Source of the DNA: an uncultured archaeon
GTDB taxonomy: Archaea; Asgardarchaeota; Hermodarchaeia; Hermodarchaeales; Hermodarchaeaceae
Reading direction: 5' to 3'
DNA: 39,692 bases
Assembly (NCBI GenBank): GCA_964347045.1
Contig: CAYFXC010000017.1
Span: 1-39,692 of the forward strand
Position numbers and translations under genes: made by a program
Part shown: positions 22,746-30,837 of the stretch, in pieces
Layout of the letters: each line of letters opens with the position of its first letter
How positions within the stretch are numbered: the stretch's first letter is position 1
The notes under the pieces: model-generated
Database searches by the model: none
The model's input: only the letters and a program-made list of their open reading frames with translations
Told to the model about the DNA's origin: nothing

Positions 22746-23420
22746 TCAGAAGATGGTCTTTGCTGTGGGTGTGGGATTGTAGAAAGGACCATGTACTGGC
22801 AATAGCACTTCTCGGAATGCTTCAGCGTACTCACATCCACCTTGAAGGCCGCGGAGTCGGGCTTTTTGGAGATTGAAGGAAAGATAGTAATCGTCGGCTT
22901 TTTTTAGTTGGCTGTGATATTCAGAGATTGCTTGGGTTTTCAACGCAATAACCTCTGAAATATCAATTAACACAGATGGTTCTGCGAAAAGGTTATTGAT
23001 TTCCATGCTGAACAATCGTTGTGGGCGCCAGGCCTTCTGTTTGTACTGTGTAGAGTGACCTGCCCATTCCGCCGCTCGTTGGAAAGCTTGATGTACAACT
23101 TGGTGATCCGGATGATAATCTGGGGCGCTATGTGATATTATTACTTCCGGCTGAACTTGTTGGATGATTGGGATGAGGGTATTTGTCACATCTTTTACTC
23201 TAGGACTCAAATCCTTCGCTTTTAAGGCAATAACCTTCGCTCCCAGGACTTTACAAGCGGCTTTCAACTCCCGATGTCGTGCTCCAGTTCCTGTAAGACA
23301 GCAAACAGTCACATGAGACCCTTGGGAGGTTTCAAGAGCGATTGTTCCTCCACATCCAAACGTTTCATCATCGGGGTGAGCCCCGATGATTAGTAGGCGG
23401 CGAGGAGTTGATTTTGGCAT
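22746..23420 (-). CDS. bshB1: PIG-L family deacetylase, BshB1-like (GlcNAc-malate deacetylase)
   Basis: AHPDDETFGCGGT, HPDH, RLRGLQGGCEYAEAF; divergent from bshA. Confidence 0.8.
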   Translation of the reverse strand: MPKSTPRRLLIIGAHPDDETFGCGGTIALETSQGSHVTVCCLTGTGARHRELKAACKVLGAKVIALKAKDLSPRVKDVTNTLIPIIQQVQPEVIISHSAPDYHPDHQVVHQAFQRAAEWAGHSTQYKQKAWRPQRLFSMEINNLFAEPSVLIDISEVIALKTQAISEYHSQLKKADDYYLSFNLQKARLRGLQGGCEYAEAFREVLLPVHGPFYNPTPTAKTIF

Positions 23421-23535
23421 GTACTATAGTACACCGGGTTCTTTCCAAAAGGTTTGCTGGCAGGAGGTTTTTACGGTTTTTTTCTGACAAGGTAACACAT
23501 AAGGGCGTGAAAGACTGCGTCCAATGAGACTGATT

Positions 23536-24642
23536 ATGCGAATTGGTGTCACTGTTTACCCAGGCATTGGTGGATCTGGTCTTCTTGGCACTCGGTTGGG
23601 TGTCGAAATGGCCAAACGGGGTCATGAAATTCGATTTATTACTTATGAGGTTCCCTTCGAATTACAAGAAGGTCGGCACGAGAATGTCAAGGTCGACCTT
23701 GTTGACGTTTTAGAATACCCGCTCTTTCGCTATCCCCCTTATACGGTAGCTCTTGCATCTCGAATGGCACAAGTTGTCCAAAAGCACCATCTGGATCTTA
23801 TTCATGTACATTATGCCATCCCTCATGCGCTATCTGCTTTCATTGCGCAGCAAATGACTGGTGTTCCTTATGTTGTCACATTACATGGTAGTGATGTCCA
23901 CACACTTGGTGCAGATCCCTCATATCAACCTGCAACTCGTTATGCAGTCGAAGCTGCTAATGCGGTCACATGTGTTACCAAACATATCTGTCAAACAGCT
24001 GAACAAACTCTTGGAATCCGATGCTCTGTTGAACCTATCACTAATTTCACGAATACTGAAATTTTCAAACCAAATTCTTGCGAATATAATTCCGGTGATG
24101 AGAAGCGGCAATTAATCCATGTTTCAAATTTCCGTCCAATTAAGCGGGTTAGTGACTTAGTAACAGCATTCGCTCAAATTGCTGACAAAGTTCCTAATGT
24201 TGAACTCTTACTACTTGGGGATGGACCTACTCGGCCTGAAGTTGACCGGCTTATTCGGAAATTTGAGTTAAATAATCGCGTCAACTGCCCTGGGTTTAAG
24301 CGTGATGTCTATCAGTATCTTCGATGTGCTGATGTTTTTGCTTTAAGCTCTGAATTAGAAGGGGCGCCTCTCTCCCTTCTTGAAGCAATGAGCTGCGGTC
24401 TCCCAGTCGTCGTAACAGATGTGGGCGGAATCCCTGAGATTATCAAAGATGGTGAAAACGGGCTTCTCGTCCCCTTCGGAGATATTGATGCCCTCGCAGA
24501 AAAACTATATGCCGTCCTCACAGACACTTCACTTGCTGGTGAACTTGGCAGAGCGGCTCGACAATCAATCCTTGAAAATCACACACCTGAAAAGATTCTA
24601 CCACAATATGAGGCTGTATACAAAACTGTACTTCAAGAGTAA
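23536..24642 (+). CDS. bshA: N-acetylglucosaminyl-L-malate synthase BshA (GT4)
   Basis: MRIGVTVYPGIGGSG, YPLFRYPPYTVALASR, IHVHYAIPHA, TLHGSD, IHVSNFRPIKRV are BshA-characteristic motifs. Confidence 0.88.
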   Translation: MRIGVTVYPGIGGSGLLGTRLGVEMAKRGHEIRFITYEVPFELQEGRHENVKVDLVDVLEYPLFRYPPYTVALASRMAQVVQKHHLDLIHVHYAIPHALSAFIAQQMTGVPYVVTLHGSDVHTLGADPSYQPATRYAVEAANAVTCVTKHICQTAEQTLGIRCSVEPITNFTNTEIFKPNSCEYNSGDEKRQLIHVSNFRPIKRVSDLVTAFAQIADKVPNVELLLLGDGPTRPEVDRLIRKFELNNRVNCPGFKRDVYQYLRCADVFALSSELEGAPLSLLEAMSCGLPVVVTDVGGIPEIIKDGENGLLVPFGDIDALAEKLYAVLTDTSLAGELGRAARQSILENHTPEKILPQYEAVYKTVLQE

Positions 24643-24795
24643 TATCAAGTGTTTACTCTGTTTTGCCATAACGATATAGAAGGGAGGTAAATGTAGTCAG
24701 ATACTTCGTCGATCTTGGATTATTATTAGAACTTCCATTTTAGTTTGCTCGGATTTGAGCAAGTCCAATAGAAATAATCTTGCCAAGTCTCGATA

Positions 24796-26559
24796 TTACA
24801 AACCATTATCTACTAAATAAAACGTTGCTGCAGATGGAGTATATTCCTGGTAATGGGAAAGGAGTCTTGTAAAGTGGTTCTCTGGGTTTATTGACATGGC
24901 CACGTCAATCCAGATGAAACTCACTTCTTGGCCAATCCGTTCAGCGGAATAGCGACCAAACATCTGTGATAAATAAATTTGAAGTAGTTGTCGACGCCGC
25001 GTGAGAGTTCCGATAAGTGTTTGGCTTTCTTTTTTGAGTGAAGGATCAGTTATCTCACGCTGGCGAATAATCAATTCCTTCCTTTCTGTCTCCAGTTGAG
25101 ATTCTGCACTGATTAGGCGTGTTGCGGTTTCGCTGATGTGTTTTTTGCAGGCAGCAAATAAAGATTGTACAACGCCTGTATTCTTTTCTTTGTATCCGGT
25201 ATTAATTGCAGACTCTAGTCTTTGTAGTTCATCATGATTTAGCGGCGTGAGATTCCCACGCAGAAGTCGTTGAGCTGTGTGGTTTGTCCATGGGTTTTCA
25301 TAGTAAAGGCGAGTGTATCGAAAGAAAATTGGAACGACGCTATTATTTGCATGGAGGGCAGGTGAAACTTGTGCATGATAACTTGTTTCCCCAGAACCTC
25401 CAATGTGGATGATAACTGGTGTATAACTTTGCACAAGAAATGCGCGGGTGTCAACACGTGGAGAAAGATACATCTTCCAATCTTCAAGATCGGGAGCAGT
25501 TGCTTTGACCTCAATTGTATGAGTCGTGTTACATTTAGGGCACTCAGCTGAGATGATGGTATCTGTTCCTGACGAGTTCAGGCTAAGTGTAGGATCAAGG
25601 CGTGTTCGATTACAGTCTAAGCTAGGGCATTCAATATGGAACGGAACGTAATTGTCTGCTCGCCTACCTATTGCTGGTCCATATCCTTGTTGTTCAAGTT
25701 GAAGGGCGCTTCTATTGAGTGCCTGAATTAAGGTTTGTCGATTTGTTTCAGTTAGCAGATATTCAAATGCAGGTAACATCAGTTCGCGTATTGTGGGATT
25801 TGAAAATATCTGGAATAGTACACCACAATCCTGAGATAGGTTAGTAATACGCATCCAAAGAAAGGTGGTCCATTCTGAGATAGTTTGTGCTCTGTCATAG
25901 GTTGACTCCAGAAGATTTTGAATGATACCCGCTCTTTTTTCATACACACTAAGGCTTTGTTTTCTAGATCCTGCTACTAGCTCATGATACGTTGATATGA
26001 ATTTCTTAATGATTTGCTTTAGCCATTCTTTGGGTGGAAGTGGTAGAACGTGCATGGGTGACATTTTGTACTCTTTGGGAACGGGTAACGAAAAGGTAAG
26101 CCCTCGTGGTCCTGGGCTTGGCAAATGAATAACTGTCAATTCTTTCTGTTCATGATCGTGATCACCAACAAACATAACGGGTGTGGACTGTTGGATTGAG
26201 GCCACCTTTGTAATTGATGCAATTTTGTTAATAACAAAGCCTGGTCCTCCTAGGACGGCTGGTTGGTGTCCTGCTTCGATTACTGCCCCCTGGTCTTCAA
26301 GCTTTGTAAGATTCCGTTTAACCTGTGGCGTGAGCATATTGAATTTTCGATGAATGGATTTGATGGTTTTGCAAAGTAAACTAAGGCGTTCCTGAGTGAA
26401 GATGGGTTGTTTCTTGGGGTATGCGTTCATCAAGGGAGTGCTTAGGGTGATCGCTTCTTTGATGTTCCGTGGAATCGATCCCCAGAATTGAAGTGCAGAT
26501 TCATTGCCGTCAAATACATAGTCCGTATAGAGCTTACTGGGTGGGGGCTGTGGAGTCAT
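24796..26559 (-). CDS. bshC: bacillithiol cysteine-adding enzyme BshC homologue
   Basis: EAGHQPAVLGGPGFVINK, PVMFVGDHDHE, LSPRVDTR, HIGGSGETSYHAQ and a C-terminal coiled coil correspond to BshC motifs GQQ..L.GP.Y..K, EDHD, FS.NV..RP and GPGE..YW. ATG 26559 follows an aggag RBS. Confidence 0.8.
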   Translation of the reverse strand: MTPQPPPSKLYTDYVFDGNESALQFWGSIPRNIKEAITLSTPLMNAYPKKQPIFTQERLSLLCKTIKSIHRKFNMLTPQVKRNLTKLEDQGAVIEAGHQPAVLGGPGFVINKIASITKVASIQQSTPVMFVGDHDHEQKELTVIHLPSPGPRGLTFSLPVPKEYKMSPMHVLPLPPKEWLKQIIKKFISTYHELVAGSRKQSLSVYEKRAGIIQNLLESTYDRAQTISEWTTFLWMRITNLSQDCGVLFQIFSNPTIRELMLPAFEYLLTETNRQTLIQALNRSALQLEQQGYGPAIGRRADNYVPFHIECPSLDCNRTRLDPTLSLNSSGTDTIISAECPKCNTTHTIEVKATAPDLEDWKMYLSPRVDTRAFLVQSYTPVIIHIGGSGETSYHAQVSPALHANNSVVPIFFRYTRLYYENPWTNHTAQRLLRGNLTPLNHDELQRLESAINTGYKEKNTGVVQSLFAACKKHISETATRLISAESQLETERKELIIRQREITDPSLKKESQTLIGTLTRRRQLLQIYLSQMFGRYSAERIGQEVSFIWIDVAMSINPENHFTRLLSHYQEYTPSAATFYLVDNGL

Positions 26560-27775
26560 GATTTGGCTTCTCCTGTGGTTGTCGTCGAATGGTAAGTCCA
26601 ACTAGAAACGTTAGAAAACCCAGTGTGATGATGAGGGCAATTAGTGTTACCATATTAGTCACCAAGTACTCAGTATCAATAATTGGAACCGAACCAAGAG
26701 AAGACCATTCCTCTAATTCAATTCGATGGACCTGATACGAAAATAAGTTCGCTTCTTCTGTTCGTCGTTTAGCAATATAATCGCTGGTAATAATTTGCCA
26801 AAGTGTAACGAATGGCAAATTCGAGGCAAAAAGAGAATCCGTGTAGGCCCTAGCAGCATCTGTTCCCGGTTCTAATGTAAACAGATCGAAGGGTAACCAT
26901 CCCCATGGTGGTACAAATGCCATAGTCCAACCATGACCAGCGGAGTTTTGGTAATCAACATAGCGGTACGCATTCTCCTCTACAGACCCCCAAATAAAAC
27001 CACTTGTTCGTGCGCCCTCTTGAAACCAATGGCCTGTTGTTAAATAACTTGGAATATCAAAAATGCGGAGCAGAGCAATCAGAAGATTGGATTGGTCGTC
27101 GCAATCACCTCTTTGACTCACAATGGTTTCTTCAGGATATTGTGGTTCAGTAACCCCGCTTGAACGGGCAATATTACTTTGTATCCATTGGATTGTTGCA
27201 TATATTAGGGCAAGAACATTATCTTGTTGTTCTTGTGGAAGTTCTTCACGGATAAGCTGTGCAAGTTCAATGAGGCTAATATTCCATGTTTTCCATAAGG
27301 ACGTTGCCTGAATGTACAACAAGTAATCATCGGTGCCTAATAGGTCTTCAATGTCTCCAAGGCGTCCTGATTGCGCGATACCAATAAGTGGTAGCAATGG
27401 GCGTCGATTTGCTACGGTGAATAGCCATTCCTCATCCCATCTTAGGACCTCTTCCGGTGCCAGCATTGAAGTCAAATTTAGTGCTAGACGTGGGTTTCCA
27501 TCGACGTCGATACCTAACTCGGTAGGCATAATCGGGGAGTTATTTAGTGTCAGTTGGAAGGAAAGTTGTTCACTTGTTTGCCATGTTGTATTGCCAATAT
27601 AGTCCCAATATGGTGAGATTGGTAATGAATCATTTCCCGTTGGTTCGATCGATCCCGAGAAATGAACTCGCCAAAAGTGAACGTAGTTAAAAGCTGAAAC
27701 GCTGGGGGGGAGGGGCACAACGACTAAGAAAAGAAGGAAGACAATTATAAAGAGCCATACGCGGTTATTGCGCAT
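26534..27775 (-). CDS. secreted, membrane-anchored transglutaminase-like (Cys-His-Asp) protein
   Basis: Signal peptide, GDCDDQSNLLIALLR, GHGW..FVPPWGWLPFD, C-terminal TM helix. Confidence 0.85.
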   Translation of the reverse strand: MRNNRVWLFIIVFLLFLVVVPLPPSVSAFNYVHFWRVHFSGSIEPTGNDSLPISPYWDYIGNTTWQTSEQLSFQLTLNNSPIMPTELGIDVDGNPRLALNLTSMLAPEEVLRWDEEWLFTVANRRPLLPLIGIAQSGRLGDIEDLLGTDDYLLYIQATSLWKTWNISLIELAQLIREELPQEQQDNVLALIYATIQWIQSNIARSSGVTEPQYPEETIVSQRGDCDDQSNLLIALLRIFDIPSYLTTGHWFQEGARTSGFIWGSVEENAYRYVDYQNSAGHGWTMAFVPPWGWLPFDLFTLEPGTDAARAYTDSLFASNLPFVTLWQIITSDYIAKRRTEEANLFSYQVHRIELEEWSSLGSVPIIDTEYLVTNMVTLIALIITLGFLTFLVGLTIRRQPQEKPNHDSTAPTQ

Positions 27776-28017
27776 ACCTACCAGCCTTGCCCCACTCTTA
27801 CTAGCATGAAATCTAATGATATAAGCTCTCTCCTTTTACTTACTCTTTCAGTGTGTTTCATTTGGATTAAGTTCTTTTTGAAGCATTCTTCTGGTATTAC
27901 CAGTACTTTTTAACAAGAAAGTGGAAAGAATAGGAACACACCTGATGTTTTGAGGGATGCCAATCTTGGGTCCAAAGGTGTAACCTACTTGCTGGTTATT
28001 CCTTTCAGAGAGGAGCC

Positions 28018-28548
28018 ATGCGGCTAACCTTAAAATTCCATGGACTGGGCGAGGATATCGACATGAAATTAGGCGAAGTAGCTAGGCACGTTATTGCCTT
28101 TTTACGAGATCATCCAGAACAAGAATATACGGCCAACACGCTCCTTATGCATCTAGGCTTGCCATTACAGGAAAAACGAAGACTTTATGATGTTATTGAA
28201 GTTCTTTGTTGTGCTGGATTGGTTAATATTCGTAAGGAAGCTCGTAAACGTTATTTCAATTGGAAACCACAACTTGTCATGGCCACATCAGAAACATCGG
28301 AAATGGATATTGCCCCCGATCCTCTTTTCCAAGAAGCTGGAACTATTTTGCACCTTCTGCTTCATCTAGGTCCTGGTGCATTTCAGGAACTGAGTAACGA
28401 TTCCGCGGTTAAAATGCTGGAACGCGATGTTAAGCGAACTATTTGGGGGGCAAATGCAGTTAGTGTGGTGAGAGTTTCACTCCAAAATAGGGAAGGTCGG
28501 ATTTTAAAAGAGACCTCAACTGGAGAGGCAACCACAGCGGCATATTAG
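28018..28548 (+). CDS. E2F/DP-like winged-helix DNA-binding protein
   Basis: KLGEVARHVIAFL...EKRRLYDVIEVLCCAGLVNIRKEARKRYFNWK parallels the E2F DBD consensus SLG.L...F..LL...KRRIYDI.NVLEG.GLI.K..KN.I.W; aggag RBS. Confidence 0.72.
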   Translation: MRLTLKFHGLGEDIDMKLGEVARHVIAFLRDHPEQEYTANTLLMHLGLPLQEKRRLYDVIEVLCCAGLVNIRKEARKRYFNWKPQLVMATSETSEMDIAPDPLFQEAGTILHLLLHLGPGAFQELSNDSAVKMLERDVKRTIWGANAVSVVRVSLQNREGRILKETSTGEATTAAY

Positions 28549-28619: not shown

Positions 28620-29006
28620 CTACTCGGCTAAATCTTTCTTAACAGCTTCATAAAAACTCACTTCGTCTTCACCGCGGCGTTTCACCGTAATTTTTGGCTC
28701 GACGCCTTCTAATTTCCGTTGTACTAAAATCACGCCAGTTTTTGGTATCCGATTTATGAGTTGTCTTCGTAAATAAAGGGTAATTGCTAAATCTTCAATT
28801 CGATTGGCTATCGTAGGTTTAGTTTTTTTCAATTCCTCAAGATATTTAACGGCTTCTGGTAAAAAGAGCGTTTCTATGATCTTTTCTCGTTCTTTTTCGC
28901 GTTCTTTGATTTCATCCTTGATAGCTTCACGGCGCTCTTGCTCCTTGATTAGCGCCTGTATTTTACGTTCACGAATCCGTTTAAGCTCATCAGTATCTTG
29001 AGGCAT
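28620..29006 (-). CDS. PDCD5-family (dsDNA_bind) DNA-binding protein
   Basis: DELKRIRERKIQAL, LPEAVKYL, KPTIANRIED, KITVKRR; ATG 29006 follows agggtgg. Confidence 0.75.
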   Translation of the reverse strand: MPQDTDELKRIRERKIQALIKEQERREAIKDEIKEREKEREKIIETLFLPEAVKYLEELKKTKPTIANRIEDLAITLYLRRQLINRIPKTGVILVQRKLEGVEPKITVKRRGEDEVSFYEAVKKDLAE

Positions 29007-29110
29007 GTATGCCACCCTACGGCGAAAATGGGGCATCTGTCCAGTACTTTTATAGGTTTCGGGTTTTCTGACTTCTTGGTAAGAAAGTCGGCAAGGACCT
29101 GGGTATTTCT

Positions 29111-30381: not shown

Positions 30382-30837
30382 ATGTCTAAAGAAACAGAAT
30401 CTGCTGAGACTACTAAAACCGAAGCAGCCAAAGCGGAAGAGCCTAAAGCTGAAGAAGAAAAGGCCAAAAAGGCTACTAAGAAAAAAGAGACTAAACCCAA
30501 AACTGAAGCTAAGGCCGAAACCAAAGCTGAACCAAAAGCCGAAGCTCCTAAATCACGACGTGATGAAAGTGTCGTGTTTGTTGGTAGCAAACCATTGATG
30601 AGTTATATCACTGCCTGTGTTACTCAACTTAACCGAAATCCTGAAGAACTCGTGATCAAGGCTCGGGGACGCGCTATCAGTCGCGCTGTCGACGTTGCTG
30701 AAGTGCTGCGAAACCGATTCATGCCTGATCTCAAAGTGCGTAACATCGACATCTCTACAGAACAAGTCAAAACCGCAGAGGGCAACGTTGCAAACGTCTC
30801 AGCGATGGAGATTACATTGGTTCGCGGAATGACATAA
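30382..30837 (+). CDS. albA: DNA/RNA-binding protein Alba with long N-terminal K/E/A-rich extension
   Basis: [44 protein letters not shown]. Confidence 0.93.

Follow-up and report, generated by a model that had tools for sequence, protein, structure and literature searches.

The protein that we describe here, 161 amino acids long and encoded by an uncultured Asgard archaeon of the Hermodarchaeaceae, is, judged by its sequence, genuinely related to the eukaryotic E2F/DP transcription factors in the domain that reads DNA. Its gene lies in a stretch of 39,692 nucleotides, which we call the window. The explanation that best fits our observations, and one that we consider quite probable, is that the protein is a small sequence-specific DNA-binding regulator of the Asgard E2F/DP family, in a Hermod-type form that carries a tail of its own. 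The gene find itself is not new: E2F/DP homologues in Asgard archaea were reported by Eme et al. 2023 (Nature 618:992, Suppl. 4.1.5 and the ESP sequence table), and because that table holds an orthologue of the window protein, the family, including its Hermodarchaeia version, has to be regarded as published in 2023. What goes beyond the literature is the tail domain, together with conserved E2F-type words that precede two genes, orc1/cdc6 and ftsZ1.

The assignment to E2F/DP comes from profile searches and from the pattern of conservation. A preliminary description of this DNA had proposed a stand-alone E2F/DP-type winged-helix protein in an archaeal genome, with a comparison to Pfam profiles as the obvious check, and the proposal stands: E2F_TDP (PF02319) is the best profile match, covering residues 18-82 and profile positions 5-63 of 65 at 34.2 bits (E 2.1e-8; 35.6 bits in a genome-level profile search), above the curated gathering cut-off of 25.7 bits. 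The next Pfam family, TrmB, reaches 15 bits, below its cut-off of 25.6, and NCBIfam held nothing relevant for the protein. None of 14 control genomes, among which three are archaeal (Haloferax, Sulfolobus and Methanosarcina), yields a match above the E2F_TDP cut-off; within the phylum such a match occurs in 136 of 400 genomes, spread over 40 of 85 genera, and several families show none. Searching 5.8 billion proteins returned 32 homologues with 54-91% identity, all of them with PF02319, and those that bear names come from Asgard MAGs (Thorarchaeota, Promethearchaeota, Hodarchaeota). Conservation of RRxYD among close homologues had been set beforehand as a test of kinship, and in 25 aligned homologues the motif is invariant, as are all of K53, R54, R55, Y57, D58, V59, E61, V62 and L63; the wing tryptophan, W82, is nearly so, down to 53% identity. 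The R, R, Y and D of the motif are also invariant across 19 diverse Asgard forms, and RRxYD, the V-L that follows it and the wing Trp are kept even where these forms are very divergent. One departure from the eukaryotic pattern, a Glu after the motif where eukaryotes have a conserved Asn (DVIEVL vs DITNVL), was pointed out in the same description and proves to be invariant in the 25-homologue alignment; in other Asgard forms the residue here is Ala, Asn or Asp.

When the family profile was compared with the PDB, the best two entries were E2F8 (E 0.005) and E2F4 (E 0.03), both weak matches, and in E2F8 the RRxYD helix was the point of alignment for each of the two domains. The second DNA-binding domain of E2F8 has precisely RRLYD, and a resemblance to that domain of E2F7/8 had been suggested from the letters of the window; matches as weak as these do not bear out a specific kinship. 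An HMM search of 1.8 billion representatives gave only nine proteins at E <= 1e-3, with no named eukaryotic E2F/DP among them, and a search for longer relatives led to one protein of 747 aa. Tandem arrangements do occur among small proteins: P0036, P0038, P0039 and P0040 (195-228 aa) each carry two E2F_TDP domains in a row, as E2F7/8 do.

The limits of the gene itself needed a correction. The open frame first described, from 28018 to 28548 on the forward strand, is present with an identical translation, and its RRLYD codons can be read directly from the sequence where they had been placed, but translation probably does not begin at 28018. The ATG at 28063 is kept in 16 loci and that at 28018 is not kept in 15 orthologous loci; since homologues are moreover mostly 161 aa long with the start MKLGEV, and since a GAGGA is conserved just before the downstream ATG, the shorter frame is most likely the coding sequence (Table 1). 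The leader block that contains this GAGGA is identical in 12 of 13 loci of the same genus and has a 1-nt deletion in the remaining one, and the GAGGA is retained in a second genus too. What looks like conservation of a peptide, GLGEDI, in the 5' extension is a conserved nucleotide block with a Shine-Dalgarno sequence.

Table 1. Features at and around the E2F/DP-like gene, in window coordinates.
Feature	Position	Strand	Remarks
Putative promoter	27893..27914	+	GGTATTACC at 27893-27901, then TATA-like TTTTTAAC at 27907-27914
5' extension of the open frame, probably untranslated leader	28018..28062	+	Without a conserved upstream start
Conserved leader block GGACTGGGCGAGGATATC	28042..28059	+	Contains Shine-Dalgarno GAGGA
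E2F/DP-like CDS, most likely	28063..28548	+	161 aa plus stop; homologues mostly 161 aa, start MKLGEV
E2F_TDP winged-helix DNA-binding domain	28069..28263	+	Pfam PF02319; placed at C17:28069-28263 by genome-level search
RRLYD recognition-helix motif	28177..28191	+	Codons CGA AGA CTT TAT GAT
Lineage-specific C-terminal domain	28318..28521	+	F-Q-E-L-S-N ... M-L-E-R-D-x-K-R ... beta hairpin; many invariant columns
PDCD5-like dsDNA-binding protein, convergent neighbour	28620..29036	-	Pfam dsDNA_bind 25.7 bits, just under cut-off 26
Alba chromatin protein	30382..30837	+	Pfam Alba 71.7 bits; Lys/Glu/Ala-rich N-terminal tail

The C-terminal half had been described as free of any obvious marked box or Rb-binding region, and indeed it matches no Pfam family, even at E 10. 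It is nevertheless a domain of about 65 aa whose conservation across the 25 homologues equals that of the DNA-binding domain, and in an AF2 model it is set off by a disordered linker (residues 71-85 of the 161-aa form) that is poorly conserved. Folded alone (AF2, 23 sequences) it forms a small alpha/beta unit with pLDDT 79.6; for this fold the best match in a wide VIA-align search had a Z of 3.1 (SEA/dystroglycan-type alpha/beta), and Foldseek found nothing below E 2 in the PDB. Outside its own family, an HMM of the domain matches only a distant form, of 152 aa, that belongs to a different Asgard family (f26). A language-model search for look-alikes of residues 98-176 brought up DP/E2F clusters at 0.76 only, which is a lead and not evidence. 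Most other Asgard E2F_TDP proteins, read at loci L010, L032, L033, L017, L020, L028, L019 and others, have the same N-terminal domain with RRxYD and an unrelated tail. In the commonest form, of 170-190 aa, about 40 aa of coiled coil come after the winged helix, and then a conserved beta-rich module with the motif KTEFNT..LRVR..GFKRV..EV.IET..PG..VDP. The HMM of the Hermod-type domain does not match these coiled-coil/beta-tailed proteins, and the two kinds of tail have no profile similarity (hhalign probability 0.06%). The order of parts in the coiled-coil-tailed forms, which have no Pfam match in their tails, recalls that of eukaryotic DNA-binding domain, coiled coil and marked box; shorter Asgard forms of 119-121 aa have no coiled coil.

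The published account and ours meet at the DNA-binding domain. Among the entries in the table of Eme et al. 2023 is a Hermodarchaeia protein of 161 aa with the start MKLGE..., the helix KRRLYDVIEVL and MLERDIKR in its C-terminal region; P0011, a near-twin of that entry, is 76% identical to the window protein, which falls in the same orthologous group (arCOG02749). Eme et al. [quoted passage not shown] Their description is of the DNA-binding domain only and does not extend to the Hermod-type C-terminal domain, target sites or promoter. A 2024 review of the archaeal cell cycle likewise lists E2F homologues as present in Asgard genomes.

Set beside eukaryotic E2F/DP (PF02319; structures E2F4-DP2-DNA 1CF7 and E2F8 4YO2), the window protein has in common the winged helix, RRxYD, V-L..G-L and the wing Trp. 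It differs, apart from the Glu after the motif, in being only 161 aa long, in having none of the coiled coil, marked box (E2F_CC-MB) and DP dimerisation domain of E2F1-6/DP, and in having no transactivation or Rb-binding tail. It also has a single Pfam match, in contrast to the two tandem domains per chain of E2F7/E2F8. Where eukaryotes form an E2F-DP heterodimer, this genome, which is 88.9% complete, has one E2F_TDP locus above cut-off and no second paralogue. The RB_A model of Rb has no match here, nor in any control genome, and Cyclin_N gives a 19-bit match, below its cut-off.

E2F/DP drives the G1/S transcription programme of eukaryotes, in which CDC6 and ORC1 are among the classic targets, and the eukaryotic E2F consensus is TTTSGCGCSAAA; the candidate sites TTGGCGCCAA and TTTTGGCGCG match it. 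We chose the orc1/cdc6 and ftsZ1 loci with a prior expectation, and the evidence that follows is phylogenetic footprinting at these two. The best-scoring orc1/cdc6 gene (C1:66261-67496, minus strand) has upstream of it an origin-like region with ORB-type boxes, TCCAGTGGAAA..GGGGGG. At -151 to -159 from its ATG, the word (C/G)GCGCCA(A/T)(A/T)T is found in 13 genomes, and in three of the 13 it reads exactly TTGGCGCCAA; the candidate site has the sequence TTTACGCGCCAAAT and the word sits centrally in a longer palindrome of about 30 bp, TGTTNACA ... TGTGAACA. Upstream of orc1/cdc6 in the distant family f26, which has the C-terminal domain in common, GGCGCC stands between TTCACA/TGTGAA arms, accompanied by TTTTGGCGCG. 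No such word precedes orc1/cdc6 in five genomes of the E2F-less families f7 and f3, a control that is weak because these families are distant and AT-rich. In f7 (L127, L128, L129, without an E2F_TDP match) a small winged-helix ORF, ...PRTTLYDNLARLI.EGYV..., lies directly upstream of orc1/cdc6.

The second candidate is the E2F-type palindrome TTGGCGCCAA upstream of a cdrS-like gene paired with ftsZ1. It is identical in all 13 genomes of the genus amid surroundings that have diverged, and it is one of only four invariant blocks of at least 7 nt in the 720-nt stretch upstream of ftsZ1. It lies at -441 to -454 from ftsZ1 and about 255 nt before the cdrS-like gene, and is thus far from the nearest start codon. 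The spacing to that gene is constant, but the spacing to a tRNA-Leu on the opposite side differs because of insertions. This tRNA-Leu(TAG), which has an intron of 28 nt and its CCA end encoded (L083 c[1081,1196]; C1:100880-100995), was found by ARAGORN with introns allowed; ARAGORN run without that option and Rfam at gathering score both missed it. The cdrS-like gene encodes a 55-aa RHH protein (Pfam RHH_1; L083:1609-1776, C1:101408-101575), is kept before ftsZ1 in 13 genomes and ends 7 nt before ftsZ1 (C1:101583). A cdrS-ftsZ arrangement is known from haloarchaea, and the pair in this Asgard archaeon resembles it.

Across the genome as a whole, E2F-type words are not enriched. Because TTGGCGCCAA occurs only three times in the genome, once outside coding sequence, the case for targets rests on conservation at the two loci. 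Words with a GCGC core are not enriched in the non-coding DNA of contigs of at least 10 kb, where CGCGCG ranks 1989 of 4096 hexamers. We discarded the idea of a genome-wide regulon defined by word enrichment, since the 2.5-fold excess of (CG)3 in non-coding DNA comes entirely from small contigs. On large contigs the genes beside (CG)3 or TTTSGCGC sites are a mixed set, apart from orc1/cdc6 and one ribonucleotide reductase, an anaerobic one, which is 521 nt from its GCGC-core site. The small contigs in question (C49, C53, C57, C69, C76, C80, C59, C54 and C67, of 1.5-4 kb) carry (GC)3-5 tracts at 1-3 per kb, compared with about 0.1 per kb on large contigs; the tracts often lie within 100-200 nt of contig ends, with AT-rich flanks, and the contigs encode ordinary metabolic genes. 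The cause could be assembly breaks, a strain-variable region or foreign DNA that was binned with the genome.

The E2F-like gene has a conserved putative promoter of its own. Autoregulation through a GCGC site was considered and dropped, as the gene's upstream region contains none. GTAWTACCA and TTTTAAC, by contrast, are kept upstream of the gene in all 16 orthologous loci, which come from two genera. The palindromic 9-mer GGTAWTACC has 13 copies in the genome, and the six outside coding sequence (window 27893-27914; C1:101346, C2:128687, C2:163180, C8:92214 and C12:27109) each lie just upstream of a TATA-like box; the genes that they precede are the E2F-like gene, cdrS-ftsZ1, Cdc48, a Xer-type recombinase, NurA and a cytidine deaminase. 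This set may be a small regulon of division and DNA-maintenance genes that belongs to another factor. Given the GTAWTACC element and a promoter with no GCGC site, the E2F-like gene is probably under such a factor together with these genes.

Around the gene, a block made up of a transglutaminase-like gene, the E2F-like gene, the convergent PDCD5-like gene, an M28 peptidase gene and Alba is collinear in 15 loci from two genera, which on its own reflects close kinship only. A PDCD5-like gene is also found near the E2F-like gene in the distant family f26, and in families f8 and f14 the distance between Alba and the E2F-like gene is 0.3-1.2 kb. The Alba protein of the window carries at its N terminus a tail of about 55 aa in which Lys, Glu, Ala and Pro abound and which resembles a histone or H1-like tail; its sequence varies across the genus, and in the sister genus it is shortened to about 15 aa. 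Further upstream, at 22746-26601 of the window, three adjacent genes match PIG-L deacetylase, GT4 glycosyltransferase and a BshC Rossmann-like domain. Together these are the enzymes for making a bacillithiol-type thiol, and to have them would be unusual for an archaeon.

How else might the protein be read? One could suppose an ordinary archaeal winged-helix regulator, ArsR-, TrmB- or MarR-like, whose likeness to E2F/DP is convergent or superficial and which binds unrelated sites. Structure comparison leans in that direction: the AF2 model (17 sequences) has three helices and a beta-hairpin wing (H3-16, H24-31, H35-50, E54-59, E62-67; pLDDT 78-92), and with the whole model Foldseek puts ArsR/HlyU, Hop2 and Zalpha winged helices on top, VIA-align puts Hop2 first (Z 11.6), Fur-family winged helices also rank high, and E2F/DP chains are absent from the 50 matches listed in Foldseek and from those in VIA-align. 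With a single sequence, phmmer against the PDB likewise places an ArsR chain (3f6v, E 0.6) slightly ahead of E2F4 (E 1.2). VIA-align, however, returns 302 winged-helix chains at Z >= 8, and structure comparison therefore places the domain no more precisely than 'winged helix'. The sequence evidence points the other way: E2F_TDP scores above its curated cut-off and TrmB far below its own, no control archaeon reaches the E2F_TDP cut-off, the family profile puts E2F8 and E2F4 first in the PDB, and the conserved motif, V-L and wing Trp persist across very divergent Asgard forms. The assignment by Eme et al. 2023 agrees, and we regard this alternative as very improbable. We find it harder still to believe that the protein is a Zalpha-like binder of left-handed (CG)n DNA and not a reader of B-DNA sequence. 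Zalpha domains do rank near the top of its structural matches (Z 10.9, rmsd 1.9 A over 64 residues), the recognition helix has a Tyr and the wing a Trp, and some small contigs of the assembly often contain (CG)3-5 tracts; yet Pfam z-alpha gives no match even at E 10, the crowd of chains above Z 8 makes the structural rank unspecific, and (CG)3 is not enriched in the non-coding DNA of the large contigs.

A different kind of alternative accepts the domain and questions the function. The word before orc1/cdc6 could belong to origin function or to another protein, and because it lies inside a larger palindrome beside ORB boxes, it could be an origin element. In that case the protein might not be a transcription factor; it might be an origin- or chromatin-associated DNA-binding protein that acts on the oriC palindrome with Alba- or PDCD5-like partners and modulates replication initiation or local chromatin. 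The best-conserved orc1/cdc6 candidate site does lie among ORB-type boxes, family f26 has a similar GGCGCC-centred palindrome, and in four Asgard families an Alba or PDCD5-like gene is found close to the E2F-like gene. But the surroundings of the ftsZ1 site are not those of an origin, the order of genes near Alba changes from one family to another, and inside the genus the block as a whole is just collinear. We think such an origin protein unlikely.

We favour a sequence-specific regulator, and its mode of action can be sketched as follows. Like its counterpart in eukaryotic E2F/DP, the RRxYD helix would read the GCGC core, and the protein would occupy TTGGCGCCAA-type palindromes as a pair, perhaps joined through the C-terminal domains. 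Homodimers had also been proposed in the preliminary description; a two-copy complex prediction scored 0.13 and 0.19 against a mark of 0.42 and weighs neither for nor against pairing. The best candidate targets would be the site beside the origin boxes upstream of orc1/cdc6 and the site upstream of the cdrS-like RHH gene and ftsZ1, and the regulator's own gene would probably be controlled by another factor through GTAWTACC, along with division and DNA-maintenance genes. The full proposal, that the Asgard factor binds TTGGCGCCAA palindromes at the orc1/cdc6 promoter or origin and upstream of cdrS-ftsZ, pairing through its own C-terminal domain, is one that we put forward tentatively, on conserved sequence, and that we hold to be less likely than not.

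Taken alone, the gene is an ordinary find, a further orthologue of a catalogued eukaryotic signature protein. If the proposal above is true, the link between the E2F family and the gene for the replication initiator, which is a hallmark of G1/S control in eukaryotes, would be older than eukaryotes themselves and would reach into archaeal cell division. And if the protein binds the E2F-type words before orc1/cdc6 and ftsZ, the way in which cell-cycle transcription arose before eukaryotes would become directly testable.
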